NCBI GenBank assembly: GCA_038882935.1
Contig: JAVZNF010000003.1
Span: 1-64,000, forward strand
Source: Archaeoglobaceae archaeon
GTDB taxonomy: Archaea; Halobacteriota; Archaeoglobi; Archaeoglobales; Archaeoglobaceae
Length of the DNA: 64,000 bases
Reading direction: 5' to 3'
Under the pieces are notes generated by a model, which had not been told where the DNA came from, did not search any database, and saw nothing but the letters and a program-made list of their open reading frames with translations. A program made the translations under genes and the position numbers. Within the stretch, counting starts at the first letter, position 1; the number at the start of each line of letters is the position of its first letter. Below, in pieces: positions 33,109-43,122 of this stretch.

Positions 33109-33693
33109 TTAATCACTCGCAGGAAAAGGCTTAATCCTCAGCTTCATGAACTCTTCCTTAATCTCGACATTGTATCCTATAAATGGCAAGACGATCTCTA
33201 AAAAGCTCTTTACAAAATTCTTTAGGAATTCACTGCTAAGCACAAGCGTATATTCTCCATCCTTTGCTGTAAATCTGAACAAATTGCAAGCTTCAAGCCT
33301 TCTGAGGACATATTCAAGATCCTTTCCTGCAAATTCGTCGGCGTGAGCTCTTGCTATGTCTCTGTGAATCTCCCAGAATTGCTCTTTCTCAGGATGAGAA
33401 CCAAGAAACTTCATTAATGCTATGAAGTAATCTATATCGAGCACAACGTGTTTTCCATTTCTTAACATCTCAACATATCTCATTATTATTTCCTTTCTGA
33501 CGTTCTTGAGCTCTCTGAATTCGTAGTAAAACTTCAGAACTTCCCTTATTAGCTCGCTTTGTGATTCAAATTCCCCTCTTAGCTCGTTCATAATTTTTAG
33601 GCTCTTCTCATCCAATGCAACCGTTACTCTTACAGGGTTCTTCACAAAAATTAAGAAGAGTCCAGATTTAAAAATTTTTCGTAAAGTGAACAA
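33109..33693 (-). CDS. ribbon-helix-helix (CopG-like) transcriptional regulator with a C-terminal domain of about 150 aa; candidate regulator of the divergent amt-glnK genes
   Basis: [38 protein letters not shown] is an RHH N-terminus. The true start is probably downstream of the annotated Met. Confidence 0.55.
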
Positions 33694-33795
33694 TTTCCTA
33701 AAAGTTATTTAAAATTTTCACGGGAAATTTTGATTTATGAAAAATTAAGAAGACTTATTAAAAAGATTTTTAAATCCACCATTTGCTCAGGATTT

Positions 33796-34965
33796 ATGGA
33801 TGGGGGAGATATTGCTTGGCTTATAACCGCAACTGCGATGGTTATGTTGATGACACCAGCGCTCGGATTGTTCTACGGCGGAATGGTTAGGAGCAAGAAC
33901 GTGATCTCAACGATCACACTTTGCTACTTAGCCTATGCGCTCGTCAGCGTCCAATGGGTGATCATTGGCTACACTCTTGCTTTTGGAGGCGATCAAGCTG
34001 GTTTGATCGGCGGATTTGAGTATTTGGGGCTTCAGAGTTTGAATTTAGTAGATCTTGGTTTTGTGGCATTCCAAATGGTTTTTGCTGGGCTTACAATAGC
34101 GATAGTAGTCTCTGCAATGGTCGAGAGAATTAAGCTGTCCTCCTTTCTGATCTTTGCCCTACTTTGGACTACGCTGGTTTATGATCCAATTGCTCACTGG
34201 GTCTGGGGCGGGGGATGGCTTGCAAAGCTCGGCGCTCTTGATTTTGCAGGTGGCACTGTGGTGCACATAAGCTCAGGATTCTCCGCTTTAGCCTTGGCAC
34301 TTGTAATTGGAAGGAGAAGCAATTTAAAAGGAGTAATTACAGAACCTCACAATGTTCCAATGACTCTGCTCGGCGGTGCTTTGCTCTGGTATGGCTGGTT
34401 CGGCTTCAACGCTGGAAGTGCTCTGCAAGCAAATGAGATAGCCCTTAATGCATTCTTGGTTACAAACACATCTGCAGCTTCAGGAGCATTGGCTTGGATG
34501 TTTGTCTCATGGCTAAAGGGCAGACCTGGTAGCCTTGGAATGATCAGCGGAGCGATTGCGGGGCTTGTTGCGATAACTCCTGCTGCTGGCTACGTAGATG
34601 TGCTGTCTTCAATTGCAATAGGTAGCATCGCTGGAATTGGTTGTTACTTTGCCATGTTGCTTAGAACAAAGCTCGGAATTGATGAAAGCCTTGATGCATG
34701 GGCTATTCATGGTATTGGCGGACTATGGGGGTCGATAGCTACTGGAATATTTGCAAGGATCAACTCGGAAGGTCTGATACTCGGAAACTATTCCCAACTC
34801 TACGCCCAGATAATTGGAGCATTCTCAGGAGCTATCTACGCTTTCGTGGTTACCTTTATACTTGCAAAGCTAATCTCCGCTCTAATAGGGCTAAGAGTTG
34901 AAGAGGCTGAGGAATACGTTGGTCTTAACATTGCCCAACATGGTGAGATAGCTTATTCGAGGTGA
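33796..34965 (+). CDS. amt: ammonium transporter
   Basis: [35 protein letters not shown] is the canonical Amt N-terminus. The start is moved to the internal Met at 33796. Confidence 0.9.
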
Positions 34966-34970
34966 GTGAG

Positions 34971-35297
34971 ATGAAGATGATCTTGGCAATAATACGCCCG
35001 GAAAAGTTCGAGGAGGTAAAGAACTCGCTGGAGAGAGAAGGTATCTTTGCTTTAGCAACATTTGAGGTAAGAGGGCGTGGAGAGCAGAGGGGAATAAAGC
35101 TCCAGTTCCGAGGCAGAGAAATACAAGTAGACATGCTCGAAAAGCTCGCAGTTATGGTGGTCGTTGATGATGAGATAGCTGAAAAGGCTACAGAGCTCAT
35201 AAAGGAGAGTGCAAGAACTGGAAAGCCCGGAGATGGAAAGATCTTCGTTATTCCAGTTGAGAAGGCGATCAGAATTAGGACTGGAGAAATAAGTTAA
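34971..35297 (+). CDS. glnK: nitrogen regulatory protein P-II
   Basis: MKMILAIIRPEKFEEVKNSLEREGI...T-loop RGRGEQRG. It lies immediately downstream of amt. Confidence 0.92.
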   Translation: MKMILAIIRPEKFEEVKNSLEREGIFALATFEVRGRGEQRGIKLQFRGREIQVDMLEKLAVMVVVDDEIAEKATELIKESARTGKPGDGKIFVIPVEKAIRIRTGEIS

Positions 35298-35298
35298 A

Positions 35299-35320
35299 TT
35301 TTTTATTTTTATATTTTTAG
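35299..35320 (+). terminator. oligo-T archaeal terminator after glnK
   Basis: The tract ttttttatttttatattttt begins directly after the glnK stop. Confidence 0.5.
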
Positions 35321-35412
35321 TCTCCTAATATTTATACAAATCCGTACGTTTGGTTATAAGCCATACGTTTACAATCGTAAAATTTATATTCATTCCCTTT
35401 CGCCATCAAGGG

Positions 35413-35826
35413 ATGAGAATCGTCGTTAAGCCAGAAGTCTGCATGGGATGCCAAATCTGCGAAATCTGGTGCTTGGTAGCGCACTCTATGTCAAAAGACA
35501 TCTTAAATGCCTTCCTTCTGGAGAAGCCAAGAGCGAAGCCAAGGATTGTGGTTGAAAGAAACCTCTCAGAATACCTTATTTTGCAATGCAGAAACTGCGA
35601 AGAGCCGAAGTGCATGTTCGCATGTATCAGCGGGGCGATCTATAGAGACAATGGAGTCCTGAAATACAATGAAGAGAAGTGTGTTTCATGCTTAAGCTGT
35701 GTAATGGCTTGTCCTTATGGTGCTGTGAAGTTTGAAGATGGGAAAATCGTCCGATGCGATCTCTGCAACTTAGATCCTGTCTGCGTAAAAGTCTGCCCAA
35801 ATAAGGCATTGGAAGTGGTTTCATGA
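35413..35826 (+). CDS. 2x[4Fe-4S] ferredoxin-domain protein, first gene of the glutamate synthase operon
   Basis: CMGCQICEIWC, CRNCEEPKC, CVSCLSCVMACP and CDLCNLDPVCVKVCP motifs. The start is taken at MRIVVKPEV; the upstream MVISHTF extension lacks coding character. Confidence 0.75.
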   Translation: MRIVVKPEVCMGCQICEIWCLVAHSMSKDILNAFLLEKPRAKPRIVVERNLSEYLILQCRNCEEPKCMFACISGAIYRDNGVLKYNEEKCVSCLSCVMACPYGAVKFEDGKIVRCDLCNLDPVCVKVCPNKALEVVS

Positions 35827-37100
35827 AGTTCGAAAACGTGATCATCGGTAATTCTTCCGCAGGGATTGGATGCGTTGAGGCGATAAGAGAGATAGACAGC
35901 GATGCAGATATACTCATGGTTTCCGCTGATCGACAGGCGTATTCAAGAGCTCTAATCCCCTATTACCTCAGAGGTAAGATTGAATTAGAGGGTTTGCTTT
36001 ACAGAAGGCAAGAGTTCTTTGAGAGGCTAAACGTTGAAACAAGATTTGGCATTAGAGTTGAGAAGATAGACGCCAACAAGAAGGAAATAACGCTCGAAAA
36101 TGGCGAGATTGTTGGATACGAGAAGCTTCTGATCGCAACTGGCGGAAAACCGTTCATTCCAAAAATTGAAGGGCTGAATGCTCAAGACTTCTTCACTTTC
36201 CAGACGCTCGAAGATGTGCTAAGAATAAAGGAAGCGGTTGAAAAGGCTGAGAGTGCTGTAATTCTTGGCGCTGGCATAATAGGGCTGATGCTTGCGGAAG
36301 CGCTTGTTGAGAAGGGATTAGAAGTTAAAGTTGTGGAACTCGCGGACAGAGTTCTCGCTCCAGTGCTTGATAAAAAGACTTCTGAGATCGTGCAAAGGAA
36401 ATTCGCTGAAAAAGGTGTTGAAATTCTGCTGAACAACACCATCTTAGAGGTGCGAAGGAACGAAAAGAAAATACTAAGGCTAAGGGATGGAAGGGAAATA
36501 GAGACGGATCTACTCGCAATCGCTGTGGGTGTTGTTCCGAACGCTGAATTGGCAAAGAATGCGGGAATAAAGGTAAACAGAGGAATAGTTGTGAACAAAA
36601 GAATGGAAACTTCTGTAAAAGATGTTTACGCTGCAGGAGACTGCGTTGAAATATTCGACAGCATTGCCAAAACGAGTAGAGCAATACCCCTCTGGATCAC
36701 AGCCTACATGGGCGGAAGAATTGCGGGATTTAACATGAGCGGGATTCCAAGGGATCTTAGCTTTGTTACCGCAATGAACTCGATGCACTTCTTCGACTAC
36801 TACATAATCACCGCTGGTCTGAGCAATTCAGAAGATGGTGAAGTGATTTCGAGACTTGAAGGTGATAACTACAGAAGGTTCGTGCTAAGAGATGGAAAGA
36901 TCGTTGGTTTCATAATCGCTGGAAAAGTTGGAAGAGCAGGTATATTCACGAGATTGATGGAAGAAGAATTGGACGTTTCTGGATTTAAGGATAAGCTCCT
37001 TAACGATAACTTCGGCTATGTTGACATTCCTGAAGCAATTAGATGGAATTTGCTAAAGGAAAAGGTAAAGTTTGGGGTGGTAAGGGATGCGTGGATTTGA
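35823..37100 (+). CDS. FAD/NAD(P)-dependent pyridine-nucleotide oxidoreductase lacking a redox-active Cys; proposed NAD(P)H:ferredoxin-type electron donor
   Basis: 425 aa. IIGNSSAGIG binds FAD and ILGAGIIGLMLAEAL binds NAD. The NADH-oxidase active Cys position reads SRALIPYY, so it is not a Nox or CoADR. ATGA overlap with the ferredoxin gene. Confidence 0.75.
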   Translation: MKFENVIIGNSSAGIGCVEAIREIDSDADILMVSADRQAYSRALIPYYLRGKIELEGLLYRRQEFFERLNVETRFGIRVEKIDANKKEITLENGEIVGYEKLLIATGGKPFIPKIEGLNAQDFFTFQTLEDVLRIKEAVEKAESAVILGAGIIGLMLAEALVEKGLEVKVVELADRVLAPVLDKKTSEIVQRKFAEKGVEILLNNTILEVRRNEKKILRLRDGREIETDLLAIAVGVVPNAELAKNAGIKVNRGIVVNKRMETSVKDVYAAGDCVEIFDSIAKTSRAIPLWITAYMGGRIAGFNMSGIPRDLSFVTAMNSMHFFDYYIITAGLSNSEDGEVISRLEGDNYRRFVLRDGKIVGFIIAGKVGRAGIFTRLMEEELDVSGFKDKLLNDNFGYVDIPEAIRWNLLKEKVKFGVVRDAWI

Positions 37101-38187
37101 AAAGGTTCACGACGCCTGTGGGCTCTTTGGAGTTATAGACAAAAGCGGTAGTAGATTTGATTCAGATATGGTTGTTACTGCGATGAAGAACATGAAAGTT
37201 AGGGGCAACGGCTTAGGAGGAGGTTTTGCTGCTTATGGAATTTATCCTGACTTTAAGGATTACTACGCTCTCCACGTTATGCTCGAAACTCCTGAAGTGA
37301 GAAAAGATGTTGAAAGCTTTTTGGAAAAGAACTTCGATGTTGTAAATGCTGAAGAAATACCCACTAATTCGGAGGCAAACGTTTTCAGACCACCGGTGTT
37401 TTGGAGATACTTTGTAATGCCAAAAAACGATGAGGGCGATGACTACGTTGTTTCGAAGGTTATGGAGATAAACACAAAAATAGAGGGAGCTTATGTTATC
37501 TCCTCAGGCAAGAACATGGGTGTATTTAAGGGCGTTGGATTCCCTGAAGACGTGGCGGAGTTTTTCCTGCTCCATGAATACAGGGGTTATATGTGGATTG
37601 GACACTCAAGATTTCCAACGAACACCCCTGGCTGGTGGGGAGGAGCGCATCCCTTCAACATCCTCGATTGGAGCGTTGTGCACAACGGTGAGATCTCATC
37701 CTACGGAACAAACAAGCGCTATTTGGAAATGCGAGGCTACTTCTGCACTCTTTTAACGGACACGGAAGTGATGGCTTACGCAGTAGACTTGCTGATGAGA
37801 AAACAAGGATTACCGATCGAGATCGTGGCAAAGATCTTAGCTCCACCGATGTGGGATCAAATCGACAGGATGGATGAGAAAAGCAAGAAGATCTACACAG
37901 CTCTAAGGATCACATACGCTCCCCTGCTCATCAATGGTCCTTGGACGATCATTGTAGCAAGGCATGGGGAGATGTTTGGGATCACAGATCGCATAAGGCT
38001 AAGACCAATAACTTCAGGAGAGAAGGGAGATCTATTCTTTGTCTCTTCTGAAGAAGCAGCAATAAGGGCTGTATGTGGAGAACTGGATAGAGTTTACACA
38101 CCAATGGGCGGGGAACCAGTAGTTGGAAGACTTTACAAATTTGAAAAAGCGGAGAGAAGGTCTCAGAGAGGTGAAGTTTTTGCTTAA
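37087..38187 (+). CDS. gltB: glutamate synthase glutamine amidotransferase domain (class II, Ntn)
   Basis: The Ntn nucleophile context is CGLFGV and the R-rich class-II GATase fold follows. The Cys sits at position 11, which implies a propeptide. Confidence 0.85.
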   Translation: MRGFEKVHDACGLFGVIDKSGSRFDSDMVVTAMKNMKVRGNGLGGGFAAYGIYPDFKDYYALHVMLETPEVRKDVESFLEKNFDVVNAEEIPTNSEANVFRPPVFWRYFVMPKNDEGDDYVVSKVMEINTKIEGAYVISSGKNMGVFKGVGFPEDVAEFFLLHEYRGYMWIGHSRFPTNTPGWWGGAHPFNILDWSVVHNGEISSYGTNKRYLEMRGYFCTLLTDTEVMAYAVDLLMRKQGLPIEIVAKILAPPMWDQIDRMDEKSKKIYTALRITYAPLLINGPWTIIVARHGEMFGITDRIRLRPITSGEKGDLFFVSSEEAAIRAVCGELDRVYTPMGGEPVVGRLYKFEKAERRSQRGEVFA

Positions 38188-38197
38188 AAAAGATGAA

Positions 38198-39709
38198 ATG
38201 TTTAGCTTCATGCTCCCTGAATTTCTCGTGGAGAGAAGAGGGGATCGGTGTATAAAGTGCAGGGTATGCGAGAGACAGTGCGGTTTTGGTGTTCACAGCT
38301 ACGATGAGATGAGCAATACGATGAGAGCTGACGAGATGAAGTGCGTCGGTTGCCAACGTTGTGCGGTGATGTGCCCAACAAAAGCGCTCATCATTCGCCC
38401 TCATCCCTCGGATTATCGCCCCAACGCCAATTGGACAAGAGAAAAAATACAGGACTTGAAGAAGCAAGCTGAAAGCGGTGGAGTTATTTTAACGGGAAGC
38501 GGTTGCGACAAGCCCTATCGCATATACTGGGATCACATCGTGTTGAACGCTGCCCAAGTCACAAATCCAGCAATAGATCCGCTAAGAGAACCAATGGAGC
38601 TTCGAACTTTCCTTGGAAGGAAGCATGACAAGCTTGAGTTCTCTTTTGATGGTGGAGAAGTTGAGCTCGTAACAGAGCTCTATCCGAACGTGCAAATCGA
38701 GACTCCGATCCTATTCTCAGCGATGAGCTACGGAGCTATAAGCTACAACGCCTTCAAAAGTCTTGCGATGGCTGCAAGCGAGTATGGAACTCTTTTCAAC
38801 ACTGGCGAGGGTGGATTGCCAAAAGAACTAAGGAAGTTTGGTAAAAACGCAGTAGTGCAGTGTGCAAGTGGCAGATTTGGTGTTGATCCAGAATACCTGA
38901 ACGTCGCTGCAATTGTGGAGATAAAAATAGGGCAAGGAGCAAAGCCCGGAATCGGTGGTCATTTGCCGGGAGAAAAAGTTACTAAGCCAATCTCTGAGAC
39001 AAGGATGATCCCTGAAGGAACCGACGCGTTATCGCCTGCTCCACAGCATGACATCTATTCGATCGAAGATCTGAGCACGCTCATATATGCTTTGAAAGAA
39101 GCCACGAATTACGAGAAGCCAGTAAGCGTTAAGATTGCAGCGGTTCACAACGTCGCAGCAATTGCAAGTGGTATTGCAAGGGCGGGAGCGGATATAATTG
39201 CAATCGATGGCATTCGAGGAGGCACCGGAGCAGCGCCAAAGATTATAAGAGACAACGTAGGAATTCCAATTGAGCTTGCGATTGCTTCGGTAGATGAAAG
39301 GTTGAGAAGGGAAGGGATAAGAAACAAGGTCTCATTGATCGCTGCGGGAGGCATTAGGAATAGCACAGATGTCGTGAAAGCCATAGCGTTGGGAGCGGAT
39401 GCGGTTTACATTGGCACTCCAGCATTAATTGCGATGGGTTGCACTCTATGCCAGAAGTGCCATACGGGAATTTGCAACTGGGGAATTTGCACACAGGATC
39501 CGCAGTTATCTAAGAGACTGAATCCCGAAATAGCTTCAAAGAGACTTGTAAACCTGTTAAAGGCTTGGAGTAATGAAATAAAGGAGATGCTTGGGGCAAT
39601 GGGAATAAATGCAATCGAAAGTCTGCGAGGCAACAGAGAGATGCTTCGCGGTGTTGGTTTGCAGGAATGGGAGCTCGAAGTTCTCGGTATAAAGGGGGCG
39701 GGAGAATGA
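38198..39709 (+). CDS. gltB: glutamate synthase FMN-binding/synthase domain with an N-terminal 2x[4Fe-4S] ferredoxin domain
   Basis: CIKCRVCERQCG and CVGCQRCAVMCP, the FMN/substrate region GGTGAAP, and the C-terminal 3Fe-4S-type motif CTLCQKCHTGICNWGIC. Confidence 0.88.
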   Translation: MFSFMLPEFLVERRGDRCIKCRVCERQCGFGVHSYDEMSNTMRADEMKCVGCQRCAVMCPTKALIIRPHPSDYRPNANWTREKIQDLKKQAESGGVILTGSGCDKPYRIYWDHIVLNAAQVTNPAIDPLREPMELRTFLGRKHDKLEFSFDGGEVELVTELYPNVQIETPILFSAMSYGAISYNAFKSLAMAASEYGTLFNTGEGGLPKELRKFGKNAVVQCASGRFGVDPEYLNVAAIVEIKIGQGAKPGIGGHLPGEKVTKPISETRMIPEGTDALSPAPQHDIYSIEDLSTLIYALKEATNYEKPVSVKIAAVHNVAAIASGIARAGADIIAIDGIRGGTGAAPKIIRDNVGIPIELAIASVDERLRREGIRNKVSLIAAGGIRNSTDVVKAIALGADAVYIGTPALIAMGCTLCQKCHTGICNWGICTQDPQLSKRLNPEIASKRLVNLLKAWSNEIKEMLGAMGINAIESLRGNREMLRGVGLQEWELEVLGIKGAGE

Positions 39710-40527
39710 AGTTTTACGATCTCTTCCTCGATTTTTCAAGAAAATTAGATGAGTTAATCCCAAGAATTAGAGTCCAAGAAGACGTTGCAGAGATCGATGC
39801 AAAGGATTTGATGCACAAGGAGCTCAACGATCTAATACGTTATGCGGTCTTTGAGCATAACTGCAACAAGATCAGGCTTTTGAATGTCGTGGGACAGAGA
39901 TACATTGGAACGAGGATCTTTTCAAGAAATCCAAGGGAAATAAGCGTTGAAATCTTCGGATGCCCAGGCAATGATCTCGGAGCCTTTCTTGCGGGTCATA
40001 AAATTGTTGTTCACGGCAACGCTCAAGATGGAGTTGGCAACACGATGGACGATGGCGAGATAATAGTCCACGGCAGAGCGGGAGACGTTGTTGCGATGTC
40101 GATGCGTGGCGGTAGAATTATGATCAGAGACGACGTTGGCTATAGAACCGCGATTCACATGAAGGAGTATAAAGAGAAGGTACCAGTGCTTATCGTGGGT
40201 GGAACGAGTCAGGACTTTTTTGGAGAATACATGGCCGGCGGAAGAGTTATTCTCTTAGGGCTTTACAGTGCAAAGCATAGGGGAAGATACATAGGCACTG
40301 GAATGCATGGCGGAATCATCTACGTTCGTGGAAAACTTGAGCCCTGGCAAGTGGGAAGAGAGGTTGGGATTTTAGAGCTAAGTAGCGAGGACTTCAGGTT
40401 TCTTGAAAAGCACGTTGGAGACTTCTGTAAAGAGTTTGGATTCGATGCAGACGAGGTCCTCGGAGATAAATTCTTAAAGCTTTTACCTGTGTCAAAGAGA
40501 CCATACGGAAACGTATACGTCTACTAA
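39706..40527 (+). CDS. gltB: glutamate synthase GXGXG structural domain
   Basis: Repeated GXGXG beta-helix motifs (GCPGNDLGAF, VHGNAQDGVGNTM, VHGRAGDVVAMSM, VGGTSQDFFGEYM). ATGA overlap with the preceding gene. Confidence 0.85.
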   Translation: MKFYDLFLDFSRKLDELIPRIRVQEDVAEIDAKDLMHKELNDLIRYAVFEHNCNKIRLLNVVGQRYIGTRIFSRNPREISVEIFGCPGNDLGAFLAGHKIVVHGNAQDGVGNTMDDGEIIVHGRAGDVVAMSMRGGRIMIRDDVGYRTAIHMKEYKEKVPVLIVGGTSQDFFGEYMAGGRVILLGLYSAKHRGRYIGTGMHGGIIYVRGKLEPWQVGREVGILELSSEDFRFLEKHVGDFCKEFGFDADEVLGDKFLKLLPVSKRPYGNVYVY

Positions 40528-40528
40528 T

Positions 40529-41212
40529 ATGAGAGCCCTTGCAATCAGACATGTTGAAATAGAGCATCTGGGATTACTTGAAAGAGTTCTTGAAGCTCTA
40601 AATTTCGAATTTGAATACCTTGACGCTTATAAGAATCAATCCTTAAACCGCAGTATTCGAGATTACTCGCTCGTTGTCGTTCTTGGAGGACCGATGGGTG
40701 CCTATGAAGAAGAACTCTATCCTTTCCTAAAGCGGGAGTTCCATATAATTGCAGAAGCGATAAAAAATAGAATTCCTTTGCTCGGGATATGCCTTGGAGC
40801 GCAGATGATTGCAAAAACTCTTGGAGCTAAAGTTTACAGAGGCGAGAATGGAAAAGAAATTGGATGGATTAATGTTCGTAAAGTGGCAAATCACGAGCTT
40901 TTTTCTGAATTCCCAGATGAGCTTAGAGTTTTGCAATGGCATCAGGACACGTTTGATTTGCCAAATGGAGCTCACAGAATTTATTCTTCCAAAAAATACG
41001 CGAATCAAGCATTCGTTTTCGATAAAGCGGTAGGTTTACAGTTCCACATTGAAGTAACGAGGGAGATGGTTAAACAGTGGGCCGAAGTTTACAGCGATGA
41101 TTTGAGCAATGAAGGCTTAAGCAAAGAAGAAATTCTTGAATACTCGAAGAGGGATGAAAAGTTCAATGCGGAAATGATAGAGAGTTTAATCTCAAGACTG
41201 CTCAATTTTTAG
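40529..41212 (+). CDS. class-I glutamine amidotransferase-like protein
   Basis: 227 aa. LLGICLGAQMIA is the G-x-C-x-G nucleophile elbow, and the His/Glu region LQFHIEVT follows. It starts 2 nt after the gltB3 stop. Confidence 0.75.
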   Translation: MRALAIRHVEIEHLGLLERVLEALNFEFEYLDAYKNQSLNRSIRDYSLVVVLGGPMGAYEEELYPFLKREFHIIAEAIKNRIPLLGICLGAQMIAKTLGAKVYRGENGKEIGWINVRKVANHELFSEFPDELRVLQWHQDTFDLPNGAHRIYSSKKYANQAFVFDKAVGLQFHIEVTREMVKQWAEVYSDDLSNEGLSKEEILEYSKRDEKFNAEMIESLISRLLNF

Positions 41213-41464: not shown

Positions 41465-41517
41465 CCAAAAAATTTTTATGCTTACCAATGTCAAGATCGC
41501 GAGACGGAGGTGGTAAA

Positions 41518-43122
41518 ATGGAGAGAGTACAGATGAATTCGGCATACCTGAATGCGATGTCCACTACTGGCACAAGGACGAGAGTTCGCGACGTGAATCC
41601 GCAAAGTGGAATGTGCCCAATTTGCGTCAGCGACTGCCCGTTTATCTGCGAAATTGCTCTTTCGACCTTCAGAGCAAACGAAGCTTTGTATCCGGAGCCA
41701 AAGTATTTTGGCGAGAGCACAGCTTCTTCGCTAAAAGACTACGGCTTGGACTGGGCGCACTTCAATTTACTTCCAAGGCTTAGGGGTGCTGAGGGCATTG
41801 AGCCGGATCCAGACCTTGCGATTTTCCCCAACGCGAGCGTTGAGTCAAAGATCGGAAAAACTAAAGTGAGATTCCCGCTTGCAATGGGTGCGTTTGGTTC
41901 AACTGAAGTTGCGCGCCGCTACTGGGACGGACTCGCTGTTGGTGCCGCCTTGGCTGGTTGTATTCTCATAATCGGCGAAAACGTCTGCGGAGTTGATCCA
42001 AAGTCGGAATTCAAGGATGGAAAAGTCGTGAGATCGCCAGAAATGGAAAGAAGAGTTAAGAAGTTCAAGGAATTCTGGGATGGGAAGTATGGAGACATAG
42101 TAGTGCAGGTAAACGTTGAGGACACCCGCTTTGGTGTTTACGAATACGTTGTTTCGAAGCTCGAAGTTGATACTGTTGAGATCAAGTGGGGACAAGGAGC
42201 GAAGGCTATAGGCGGAGAGATTAGAGTAAGAGATTTGCAAAGGGCGATTGAGCTAAAGAAGAGGGGCTACGTTGTTCTGCCCGATCCCGAGGATCCAGTG
42301 GTTCAGCAGGCTTTCAAGGATGGTGTAATTGATGGCTTTGAGAGGCACAGCAGAGTTGGAATGCCCACAGAGAAGGGGCTTGAGGAGTTCGTTGAAGAGA
42401 TCCGTGACTTAGGGGCGAAGAGTGTTACACTAAAAACGGGTGCTTATCGTCCAGAAGATGTTGCATGGCAGATGAAGGCTGCAAGTGAGGCAGAAGTGGA
42501 TTACGTAACCTTCGATGGTGCGGGCGGCGGAACTGGAATGAGTCCAGTACCAATGATGAATGAGATGGGGATTCCAACGGTTTACCTCGAAGCTCTCGTG
42601 CTCAAGGCTGCGAGAAAGCTGAAGGAAAAGGGCAGATATGTGCCCGACATAAGCATAGCTGGTGGCTTCATCAACGAGACCCAGATCCTTAAAGCCATAG
42701 CGATGAGCAACTTCGGAGATGGACCAATAGTGAAGACAGTTACAACTGGAAGAGCACCATTGACTGCGGTTATGAAGTCTGAATACTTCGTAAAGCTTGC
42801 AAAAGAGGGCAAGTTGCCGAAGAGCTTTACCGAAGTTTATGGCGACAAGCCAGATAAGTTCTTCGCCCTTGCAGATGAATTCAAGGCTAAGTTTGGTGAA
42901 AAGATTGGCAACGCAATTCCATGGAGCGCGGTAGGGCTTTACAGCTATGTTTACAGGATGAGCGTTGGTATGAAGCAGTTGCTCGCTGGAATGCGAAAAT
43001 TCAAGCTTGAACTTGCAAATCGAAACGATCTCGCCGCTTTGTCGCCGTTGGCAAGCGAAGTTACTGGAATTCCAATGATTCACAAAGTTGACGAGCAGAT
43101 CTTTGATAGCATTCTAAGTTAA
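41518..43122 (+). CDS. stand-alone glutamate synthase FMN-domain paralog (GltB2-like, archaeal 'gltB' type)
   Basis: FDGAGGGTGMSP and the N-terminal Cys motif CPICVSDCPFICE. The start is taken at MERVQMN; the MSRSRDGGGK extension is doubtful. Confidence 0.75.
   Translation: MERVQMNSAYLNAMSTTGTRTRVRDVNPQSGMCPICVSDCPFICEIALSTFRANEALYPEPKYFGESTASSLKDYGLDWAHFNLLPRLRGAEGIEPDPDLAIFPNASVESKIGKTKVRFPLAMGAFGSTEVARRYWDGLAVGAALAGCILIIGENVCGVDPKSEFKDGKVVRSPEMERRVKKFKEFWDGKYGDIVVQVNVEDTRFGVYEYVVSKLEVDTVEIKWGQGAKAIGGEIRVRDLQRAIELKKRGYVVLPDPEDPVVQQAFKDGVIDGFERHSRVGMPTEKGLEEFVEEIRDLGAKSVTLKTGAYRPEDVAWQMKAASEAEVDYVTFDGAGGGTGMSPVPMMNEMGIPTVYLEALVLKAARKLKEKGRYVPDISIAGGFINETQILKAIAMSNFGDGPIVKTVTTGRAPLTAVMKSEYFVKLAKEGKLPKSFTEVYGDKPDKFFALADEFKAKFGEKIGNAIPWSAVGLYSYVYRMSVGMKQLLAGMRKFKLELANRNDLAALSPLASEVTGIPMIHKVDEQIFDSILS

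Follow-up and report, generated by a model that had tools for sequence, protein, structure and literature searches.

We analysed a 64,000-nt stretch of genomic DNA from an Archaeoglobaceae archaeon (contig JAVZNF010000003.1, positions 1 to 64,000), hereafter the window, and focused on its genes for a split glutamate synthase (GOGAT). Six open reading frames lie on the + strand between 35413 and 41212, and Pfam profile searches agree with the domains assigned to them in a preliminary description. The first two encode a 137-aa polyferredoxin (fdx, 35413–35826; Fer4_11) and a 425-aa flavin adenine dinucleotide (FAD)/NAD(H) flavoprotein (oxr, 35823–37100; Pyr_redox_2, E 5.5e-60, plus Rubredoxin_C, a partner-binding domain). 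Next come three synthase genes on the same strand: gltB1 (37087–38187; GATase_2), for a 366-aa class-II, N-terminal nucleophile (Ntn) glutamine amidotransferase subunit; gltB2 (38198–39709), for a 503-aa protein that joins a ferredoxin domain to a flavin mononucleotide (FMN) synthase domain (Fer4_7 and Glu_synthase, PF01645, E 1.2e-149); and gltB3 (39706–40527), for a 273-aa GXGXG C-terminal β-helix subunit (PF01493, E 7.3e-32). A gene for a 227-aa class-I glutamine amidotransferase (GATase; 40529–41212, Pfam GATase, E 1.9e-22) completes the series. As read from the letters, ATGA overlaps join fdx to oxr and gltB2 to gltB3, oxr and gltB1 overlap by 14 nt, 10 nt separate gltB1 from gltB2 (whose ATG at 38198 is backed by the N termini of homologues), and a single nucleotide separates gltB3 from the GATase gene. 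The ATGA and 14-nt junctions of the preliminary description are thus retained, but its 2-nt junction measures 1 nt. The unit does lie directly downstream of amt-glnK, 115 nt from glnK.

Judged by their motifs, the three synthase products are split archaeal-type GltB1, GltB2 and GltB3, with a nucleophile Cys, an FMN plus Fer4 domain, and a separate GXGXG subunit. GltB1 begins with a 10-residue propeptide, followed by the nucleophile Cys11, which is invariant in 68 sequences. The N-terminal domain of GltB2 contains eight invariant Cys, corresponding to a 2x[4Fe-4S] ferredoxin domain. GltB2 matches the alpha subunits of glutamate synthase (GltS) in the PDB (E 3e-70), and its identity across the loci surveyed below is 60–80%. 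On the FMN side, the motif C-x2-C-x2-C-x4-C (C415/C418/C421/C426, 39440–39475) has four Cys, each invariant in 68 sequences. Hence the ferredoxin domain previously ascribed to GltB2 is present, but the motif labelled 3Fe-4S has four invariant Cys rather than three, and split GltB2 may hold a [4Fe-4S] cluster at this site, as opposed to the three-Cys [3Fe-4S] of canonical GltS. That gltB1-3 would make glutamate from glutamine and 2-oxoglutarate is indicated indirectly, by their nitrogen-related context and by analogy with a bacterial deletion phenotype. Two cluster representatives of ∼1000 aa (P0131, P0134) exhibit another fused architecture of the GltB2 family: an N-terminal Fer4, ∼450 residues without a Pfam match, a second Fer4 motif, and Glu_synthase.

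The product of fdx had been described as a 2x[4Fe-4S] ferredoxin. This description needs to be changed, as the protein contains 16 Cys arranged in four CxxCxxCxxxC-type motifs, predicting four [4Fe-4S] sites. Fourteen of these Cys are invariant in 79/79 aligned sequences, and the other two are present in 78/79. Its best NCBIfam matches are HydN and the N-terminal parts of PadI and AegA; in the PDB, they are HycB4 (5e-20) and AorA (8c0z_C, 1.2e-14). These motifs and matches point to a four-cluster polyferredoxin of the HycB/HydN/AorA type. In E. coli AegA/YgfT, the matched N-terminal domain is joined to a GltD-like flavoprotein, a case of the same design principle. For Oxr, the best NCBIfam match is PadH (300.2 bits), below the equivalog cut-off of 475, and the PadI score of Fdx (84.3 bits) falls below its cut-off of 700. 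Since neither cut-off is reached, Oxr and Fdx are considered relatives rather than orthologues of PadH and PadI.

The best PDB sequence match of Oxr is AorC (8c0z_E, E 1.5e-45), spanning Oxr residues 4–402 of 425. AorC is a subunit of the tungsten aldehyde oxidoreductase of Aromatoleum aromaticum, in which AorC (FAD, NAD+) docks on AorA, and the Fe4S4 chain includes the clusters of AorA (PMC10413684). An AlphaFold2 model of Oxr (predicted local distance difference test score 89.5) gave Foldseek template-modelling (TM) scores of 0.81–0.86 to ferredoxin reductases, rubredoxin reductase and AorC, with a TM of 0.86 and a root-mean-square deviation of 2.3 for AorC itself. In AorC, a loop containing Arg41-Met42 sits between the FAD and a cluster of AorA (PMC10413684). 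The corresponding loop, YSR-x-IPY, reads YSRALIPYY in Oxr and YSRMAIPYL in AorC, and Arg42 of Oxr is conserved in 96% of the aligned flavoproteins. In the second Rossmann motif, G149, G151 and G154 are 100% conserved among 81 aligned sequences, all of which have Glu or Asp at position 172; the NAD motif is VVELADR in Oxr and VVEMGDR in the NAD+-using AorC. By the classical Rossmann rule, an invariant acidic residue at the end of β-2 indicates reduced nicotinamide adenine dinucleotide (NADH), so these motifs predict NADH, not NAD(P)H in general. In the first dinucleotide motif (residues 9–14, 35847–35864), GOGAT-linked flavoproteins have G-N-S-x-A-G/A where AorC has GNGPAG, and GNSxAG is a signature of this clade.

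The SxxxC loop of NADH oxidase (Nox) and coenzyme A disulfide reductase (CoADR) holds a redox-active Cys. The preliminary description had noted that this Cys is missing from Oxr, and this proved to be general: the position is Ala43 in Oxr and is Pro in 66, Ala in 14 and Cys in 0 of the 81 aligned sequences. Oxr also has no FeS domain in Pfam, unlike GltD, in which an N-terminal 2x[4Fe-4S] region precedes an adrenodoxin-reductase-like FAD/NADPH domain, and GltD does not appear among its 25 best NCBIfam models (PadH, CoADR, NirB, NorW and others), which argues against membership in the GltD family. Its nearest homologue, 98% identical, comes from a metagenome-assembled genome (MAG) of the Archaeoglobales. 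Overall, Oxr resembles flavoproteins of the ferredoxin-reductase/AorC/PadH type, and we propose it as the entry point for NADH.

To build a survey, we aligned Oxr with 21 homologues (42–63% identity), scanned one genome per species with this alignment, and kept the best 80 loci; neighbouring genes were called by tblastn with the window proteins. The loci comprise 7 archaea (Archaeoglobus, Hadesarchaea, Altiarchaeota and unclassified lineages) and 73 bacteria from at least 10 phyla, including Bacillota, Chloroflexota, Armatimonadota, Thermotogae, Planctomycetota, Desulfobacterota, Syntrophales, Elusimicrobiota and Nitrospirota. The fdx-oxr pair is therefore mostly bacterial, not specifically archaeal. 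In 78/80 loci, oxr adjoins gltB genes, a recurrence in independent genomes that argues against a chance arrangement. Of the remaining two, one ends at a contig edge (L051), and the other (L076) is a true exception. Directly upstream of oxr, 78/80 loci have fdx, and the median distance between the two genes is 11 nt.

The position of the pair relative to the synthase genes varies. The order fdx-oxr-B1-B2-B3 is found in Archaeoglobi, Desulfotomaculia-like Bacillota, Armatimonadota and Chloroflexota; B1-B2-fdx-oxr-B3 occurs in 47 loci, including those of Thermoanaerobacter, Clostridia, Altiarchaeota and Thermotogae (e.g. the MAG L030); and B2-fdx-oxr-B1-B3 is seen in Syntrophales. Thermotoga maritima probably has this cluster too, with a gene labelled ‘NADH oxidase’. 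With three positions in a three-gene cluster, fdx-oxr behaves as a two-gene cassette. In A. fulgidus (fdx-oxr-B1-B2-B3), all four junctions are 4-nt overlaps, and the operon is divergent from glnA; the published annotation names only GltB1-3 (AF_0952-4; PMC8359953). Overall, glnA is adjacent in 31/80 loci, and amt and/or glnK lie within 10 kb in 17–20/80 other genomes.

A few loci depart from these layouts. In L027, L052 and L060 (Chloroflexota/Dehalococcoidia), 0.65–1.1 kb rather than the usual 0–20 nt separates fdx and oxr, suggesting that the cassette has gained an additional gene between the two, and ∼0.85 kb separates gltB1 from gltB2 in L027 and L052. A Clostridia MAG (L080, 92–4505) contains purA-fdx-oxr-gltB3 followed by a gene for an ANTAR regulator, with no gltB1 or gltB2 nearby, indicating that the cassette can stay with gltB3 alone while gltB1 and gltB2 are encoded elsewhere. 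At the exception mentioned above (L076, 154–4266), the genes for a 192-aa polyferredoxin and the flavoprotein (41% identical) are flanked by those for a NarJ/TorD-like chaperone and a molybdate transporter of the major facilitator superfamily. This cassette probably serves a molybdenum or tungsten enzyme.

When pairwise divergences are compared, Oxr follows GltB1 and GltB2 (r 0.87–0.88, Mantel 0 of 999) as closely as GltB1 follows GltB2 (r 0.90). All five window proteins have common nearest neighbours, first in Archaeoglobus MAGs and then in Bacillota and Armatimonadota, suggesting that the five-gene unit moved as a whole. In Clostridium thermocellum, Clo1313_2032-2036 (Cthe_0197-0201) have been named the ‘gogat’ cluster (PMC9888227; PMC4676874). 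Genes Clo1313_2030-2036 are co-regulated, the gogat cluster together with glnA and an ANTAR regulator (PMC4676874), and the products of Cthe_0197, 0198 and 0200 (amidotransferase, synthase and flavoprotein) go up together at the protein level, 38-, 7.6- and 46-fold (PMC3478167). Deletion of Clo1313_2032-2036 abolishes the glutamine synthetase–GOGAT route, with a 160-fold induction of glutamate dehydrogenase under nitrogen limitation (PMC9888227). Conserved synteny, the three positions of the cassette, co-divergence, and co-induction in C. thermocellum all bear out the earlier suggestion that fdx and oxr belong functionally with the split gltB genes, and we regard this tie to GOGAT as highly likely.

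What would the pair do? We favor, with somewhat better than even confidence, the reading that fdx-oxr is a dedicated NADH electron-input cassette of split GOGAT and a non-homologous stand-in for GltD. In such an enzyme, GltB1 would hydrolyse glutamine, and the ammonia would be tunnelled from GltB1. NADH would reduce the FAD on Oxr, from which single electrons would pass through Fdx with its four [4Fe-4S] clusters and the N-terminal domain of GltB2 with its two, then through the Cys4 cluster to the FMN. At this FMN of GltB2, 2-iminoglutarate would be reduced, while GltB3, the GXGXG subunit, would have a structural role. That the proteins form a physical complex, that NADH is the donor, and that electrons move in this direction and order are all inferences. 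The preliminary description had envisaged a wire from NAD(P)H through FAD and [4Fe-4S] to GltB2. Full-length homology to AorC/AorA (8c0z) strengthens that idea, but the wire would contain four clusters rather than two, and the predicted donor is NADH rather than NAD(P)H generally.

Several observations weigh against an NADH-input cassette. Fold searches score AorC, ferredoxin reductases, AIF, CoADR and Nox alike. The second Gly of the first GxGxxG is Ser in 86% of GOGAT-linked flavoproteins, so binding of FAD by Oxr has to be inferred. At none of the 80 loci is oxr or fdx fused in frame to a gltB gene, and the long GltB2-like representatives (700–1100 aa), although they have additional Fer4, GXGXG or unknown regions, lack a Pyr_redox domain. 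In C. thermocellum extracts, assays for GOGAT activity dependent on NADH or NADPH detected none, and the shifts in H2 and ethanol seen in the deletion strain were interpreted as ferredoxin-linked (PMC9888227; PMC4676874). One might speculate that O2 damage, or dissociation of a five-subunit FeS complex, explains the negative assays.

Split clusters that lack the cassette provide a further argument of this kind. We performed the reverse survey by scanning metagenomes with a GltB2 cluster representative (62% identical to the window GltB2), which yielded 56 loci. About 29 of these have fdx-oxr, 17 have only B1/B2/B3, and 5 have B1-B2-B3 with two other ferredoxin genes and no flavoprotein. In other words, ∼22 of ∼51 informative split clusters (∼40%) are without the flavoprotein. 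The cassette-free orders are B1-B2-B3 and B2-B1-B3, and the one such contig that we annotated (L098) comes from a Gram-negative bacterium. In these clusters, GltB2 retains its 8-Cys N-terminal domain, which makes the ferredoxin domain of GltB2 look like the universal electron port and the cassette like an optional adaptor. Cassette-free clusters presumably take electrons from soluble ferredoxin or from another module. The five clusters with two other ferredoxin genes (L111-L114 and L127; e.g. L112, 5434–11189) read glnA-gltB1-gltB2-gltB3 and then genes for a 145-aa Fer4_11-like and a 185-aa protein; their GltB2 is 74% identical to that of the window, and they may represent a ferredoxin-only input variant. 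With a flavoprotein absent from so many clusters, and with an FrhB-like F420H2-dehydrogenase subunit proposed from genome context as the GOGAT input of methanogens (PMC3448663), fdx-oxr is not the ‘missing’ subunit of archaeal split GOGATs generally, as had been suggested. None of the six operon proteins has a Pfam or NCBIfam match to the FrhB-type family.

Ferredoxin could instead be a direct donor. Here, reduced ferredoxin would enter through Fdx or the GltB2 domain, and Oxr would act as an NAD(H) alternative or overflow valve, or else as part of a confurcating or bifurcating complex that needs both donors. The failed NAD(P)H-only assays and the deletion-strain physiology, which fits ferredoxin consumption, speak for such an enzyme. 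So does the 8-Cys domain kept in cassette-free GltB2, since ferredoxin input would then probably be ancestral, and the A. aromaticum enzyme (AORAa) runs the AorA/AorC chain with several donors and acceptors (PMC10413684). On the other hand, NADH (∼–320 mV) suffices to reduce 2-iminoglutarate, so bifurcation is thermodynamically unneeded, and flavoproteins of the AorC and PadH type are not in the four known bifurcating families (PMC12318220). A strictly conserved two-gene cassette would also be a costly side valve. We consider direct ferredoxin input unlikely, though likelier than the other rival explanations.

A broader reading, which we rate as rather improbable, treats fdx-oxr as a portable NADH adaptor of unrelated FeS enzymes, namely tungsten aldehyde oxidoreductase, phenylglyoxylate oxidoreductase, a molybdenum/tungsten enzyme in L076, and GOGAT. 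In GOGAT, NADH and reduced ferredoxin might act jointly (a confurcating or dual-input mode), or an AorAB-like wire might link several GltB protomers. Either arrangement would explain why the NAD(P)H-only assays failed in C. thermocellum.

Protection from O2 or reactive oxygen species is a very unlikely role. In this scenario, Oxr would be NADH oxidase-like and, with Fdx, would keep an O2-labile FeS synthase reduced or scavenge O2. NADH oxidase or NAD(P)H-nitrite reductase is the usual annotation for relatives of Oxr, and the structural matches to Nox and CoADR are strong. However, none of the aligned flavoproteins has the Nox/CoADR redox Cys, and by sequence Oxr is most closely related to the FeS-coupled AorC, not to Nox. 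Its partner is always a four-cluster polyferredoxin, and the pair sits in among the gltB genes instead of just near them.

N-methylglutamate synthase, too, is built from a split GltB-like trio, and a second Glu_synthase-like gene lies downstream (41488–43122). The idea that gltB1-3 encode such an enzyme or another amidotransferase, with the cassette serving a different reaction, is nonetheless highly improbable, given the amt-glnK genes directly upstream, glnA beside the cluster in A. fulgidus and 31/80 loci, the ANTAR nitrogen regulator adjacent in L080 and C. thermocellum, the GOGAT-loss phenotype of the C. thermocellum deletion (PMC9888227), the high identity of GltB2 across loci, and its GltS alpha matches.

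Upstream of the operon lie amt (33730–34965, +; Pfam Ammonium_transp, E 6.9e-127) and glnK (34962–35297, +; Pfam P-II, E 6.2e-27), encoding an ammonium transporter and a PII signal protein and providing context as a nitrogen-assimilation neighbourhood. The two genes share 4 nt at the amt stop, and amt may really start downstream of the TTG at 33730. Between glnK and fdx is an AT-rich intergenic spacer of 115 nt (35298–35412, + strand). It contains T6, T5 and T5 runs immediately 3′ of the glnK stop and TATA-like boxes, including TTTATATT at 35384–35391, ∼22 nt 5′ of the fdx ATG. The T-runs and TATA-like boxes suggest that amt-glnK probably terminates in the spacer and that the GOGAT operon probably has a separate promoter. 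The operon would then be transcribed as one mRNA, possibly leaderless, from a promoter separate from that of amt-glnK. The NrpR operator GGAA-N6-TTCC has 0 matches in the whole window, compared to 2 expected by chance. Scans for sigma-70 promoters and intrinsic terminators showed no enrichment, although such models are unsuited to an archaeon, and the window gave no hits in scans for Rfam families or tRNAs. Divergent from amt is a gene for a 194-aa ribbon-helix-helix (CopG) protein (33109–33693, – strand; no NCBIfam match), a candidate local regulator of the amt-glnK/GOGAT region.

The class-I GATase gene stands apart from the other five. Its best NCBIfam match is PRK07053 (202 bits, below the cut-off of 250), and homologues adjoin split GOGAT clusters in 7/80 genome loci, including those of Thermoanaerobacter (L015, L016), but are absent from A. 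fulgidus. Thus the six-gene unit holds for the window, where the GATase gene follows gltB3 after 1 nt, but this gene is a lineage-specific accessory member of the operon, beside an enzyme that already holds a class-II glutaminase. In Thermoanaerobacter, amt-glnK-GATase-B1-B2-fdx-oxr-B3 represents the gene set of the window in another order. Class-I GATase genes also occur beside metagenome clusters (L097, L125), cassette-free ones included, in distant lineages. The downstream Glu_synthase-like gene noted above (+ strand) starts 275 nt after the operon and encodes a 544-aa protein with a partial PF01645 match, no NCBIfam family, and a Cys-rich N terminus, CPICVSDCPFIC. Homologues with 47–48% identity lie within 10 kb of a GOGAT cluster in 5/80 other genomes (L010, L028, L032, L036 and L049).

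Glutamate synthase mediates the entry of nitrogen into biomass when ammonium is scarce. According to reviews, both the class and the donor of archaeal GOGAT are still to be verified (PMC2483277; PMC8097209). If the cassette makes GOGAT NADH-dependent, metabolic models of Archaeoglobi, Clostridia, Thermotogae, Chloroflexota and syntrophs, among many anaerobes, would need revising; current models of C. thermocellum charge GOGAT to ferredoxin. The cassette would then be a third, non-homologous solution to electron input in GOGAT, beside GltD and the proposed F420 module, consistent with redox enzymes swapping their input modules. Our analysis also defines a concrete five-subunit assembly for reconstitution, which makes the question of the donor testable. 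Because the cluster is widespread and has been treated as one unit in a bacterium before, what is gained here is a mechanistic assignment, as a non-GltD input module of the AorC/AorA type, rather than a new system; the five-gene cluster is already recognised in bacteria. Within a limited library, and hence as weak evidence, we found no paper that gives the flavoprotein and ferredoxin the role of a GltD substitute or links them to AorAC/PadHI.

Finally, we compared the system with its known counterparts. Bacterial NADPH-GltS (GltB plus GltD) catalyzes the same reaction, passing electrons from a pyridine-nucleotide FAD flavoprotein through low-potential [4Fe-4S] clusters to one by the FMN (PMC8097209). 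The GATase_2, Glu_synthase and GXGXG domains are homologous to those of the bacterial GltB alpha subunit, but here each is a polypeptide of its own, a 2x[4Fe-4S] domain is part of GltB2, and the FMN-proximal motif has four Cys where GltS has three. Instead of GltD there are two proteins, a flavoprotein of the AorC/PadH/ferredoxin-reductase type, which lacks FeS clusters, and a polyferredoxin with four. The F420H2-dependent glutamate synthase (FGltS) similarly combines, by genomic context, an archaeal synthase subunit with a separate FeS-containing input subunit. That subunit, however, is FrhB/FpoF-like and uses F420H2, whereas here it is an FAD/NAD(H) flavoprotein. The C. thermocellum gogat cluster contains the same five families in the order B1-B2-fdx-oxr-B3, as matched through published annotations and related Clostridia loci (L054, L069). 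It is bacterial, its gene order differs from that of the window, and the literature gives its flavoprotein no role, assuming ferredoxin as the donor. The closest parallels to the cassette itself are AorA/AorC and PadI/PadH, the latter being subunits of NADH-dependent phenylglyoxylate dehydrogenase. Each pairs an FAD/NAD subunit with a four-cluster polyferredoxin, and both proteins are homologous to those of the window (AorC 1.5e-45, AorA 1.2e-14). Oxr shares with AorC the YSR-x-IPY loop facing the cluster and an NAD-type Rossmann motif. Identity to the AorAC and PadHI proteins is ∼28–35%, and Fdx is shorter than AorA (137 versus 192 aa). In those systems the partner is a tungsten or thiamine pyrophosphate enzyme; here it is a glutamate synthase, and electrons would run from NADH to the enzyme rather than from the enzyme to NAD+.

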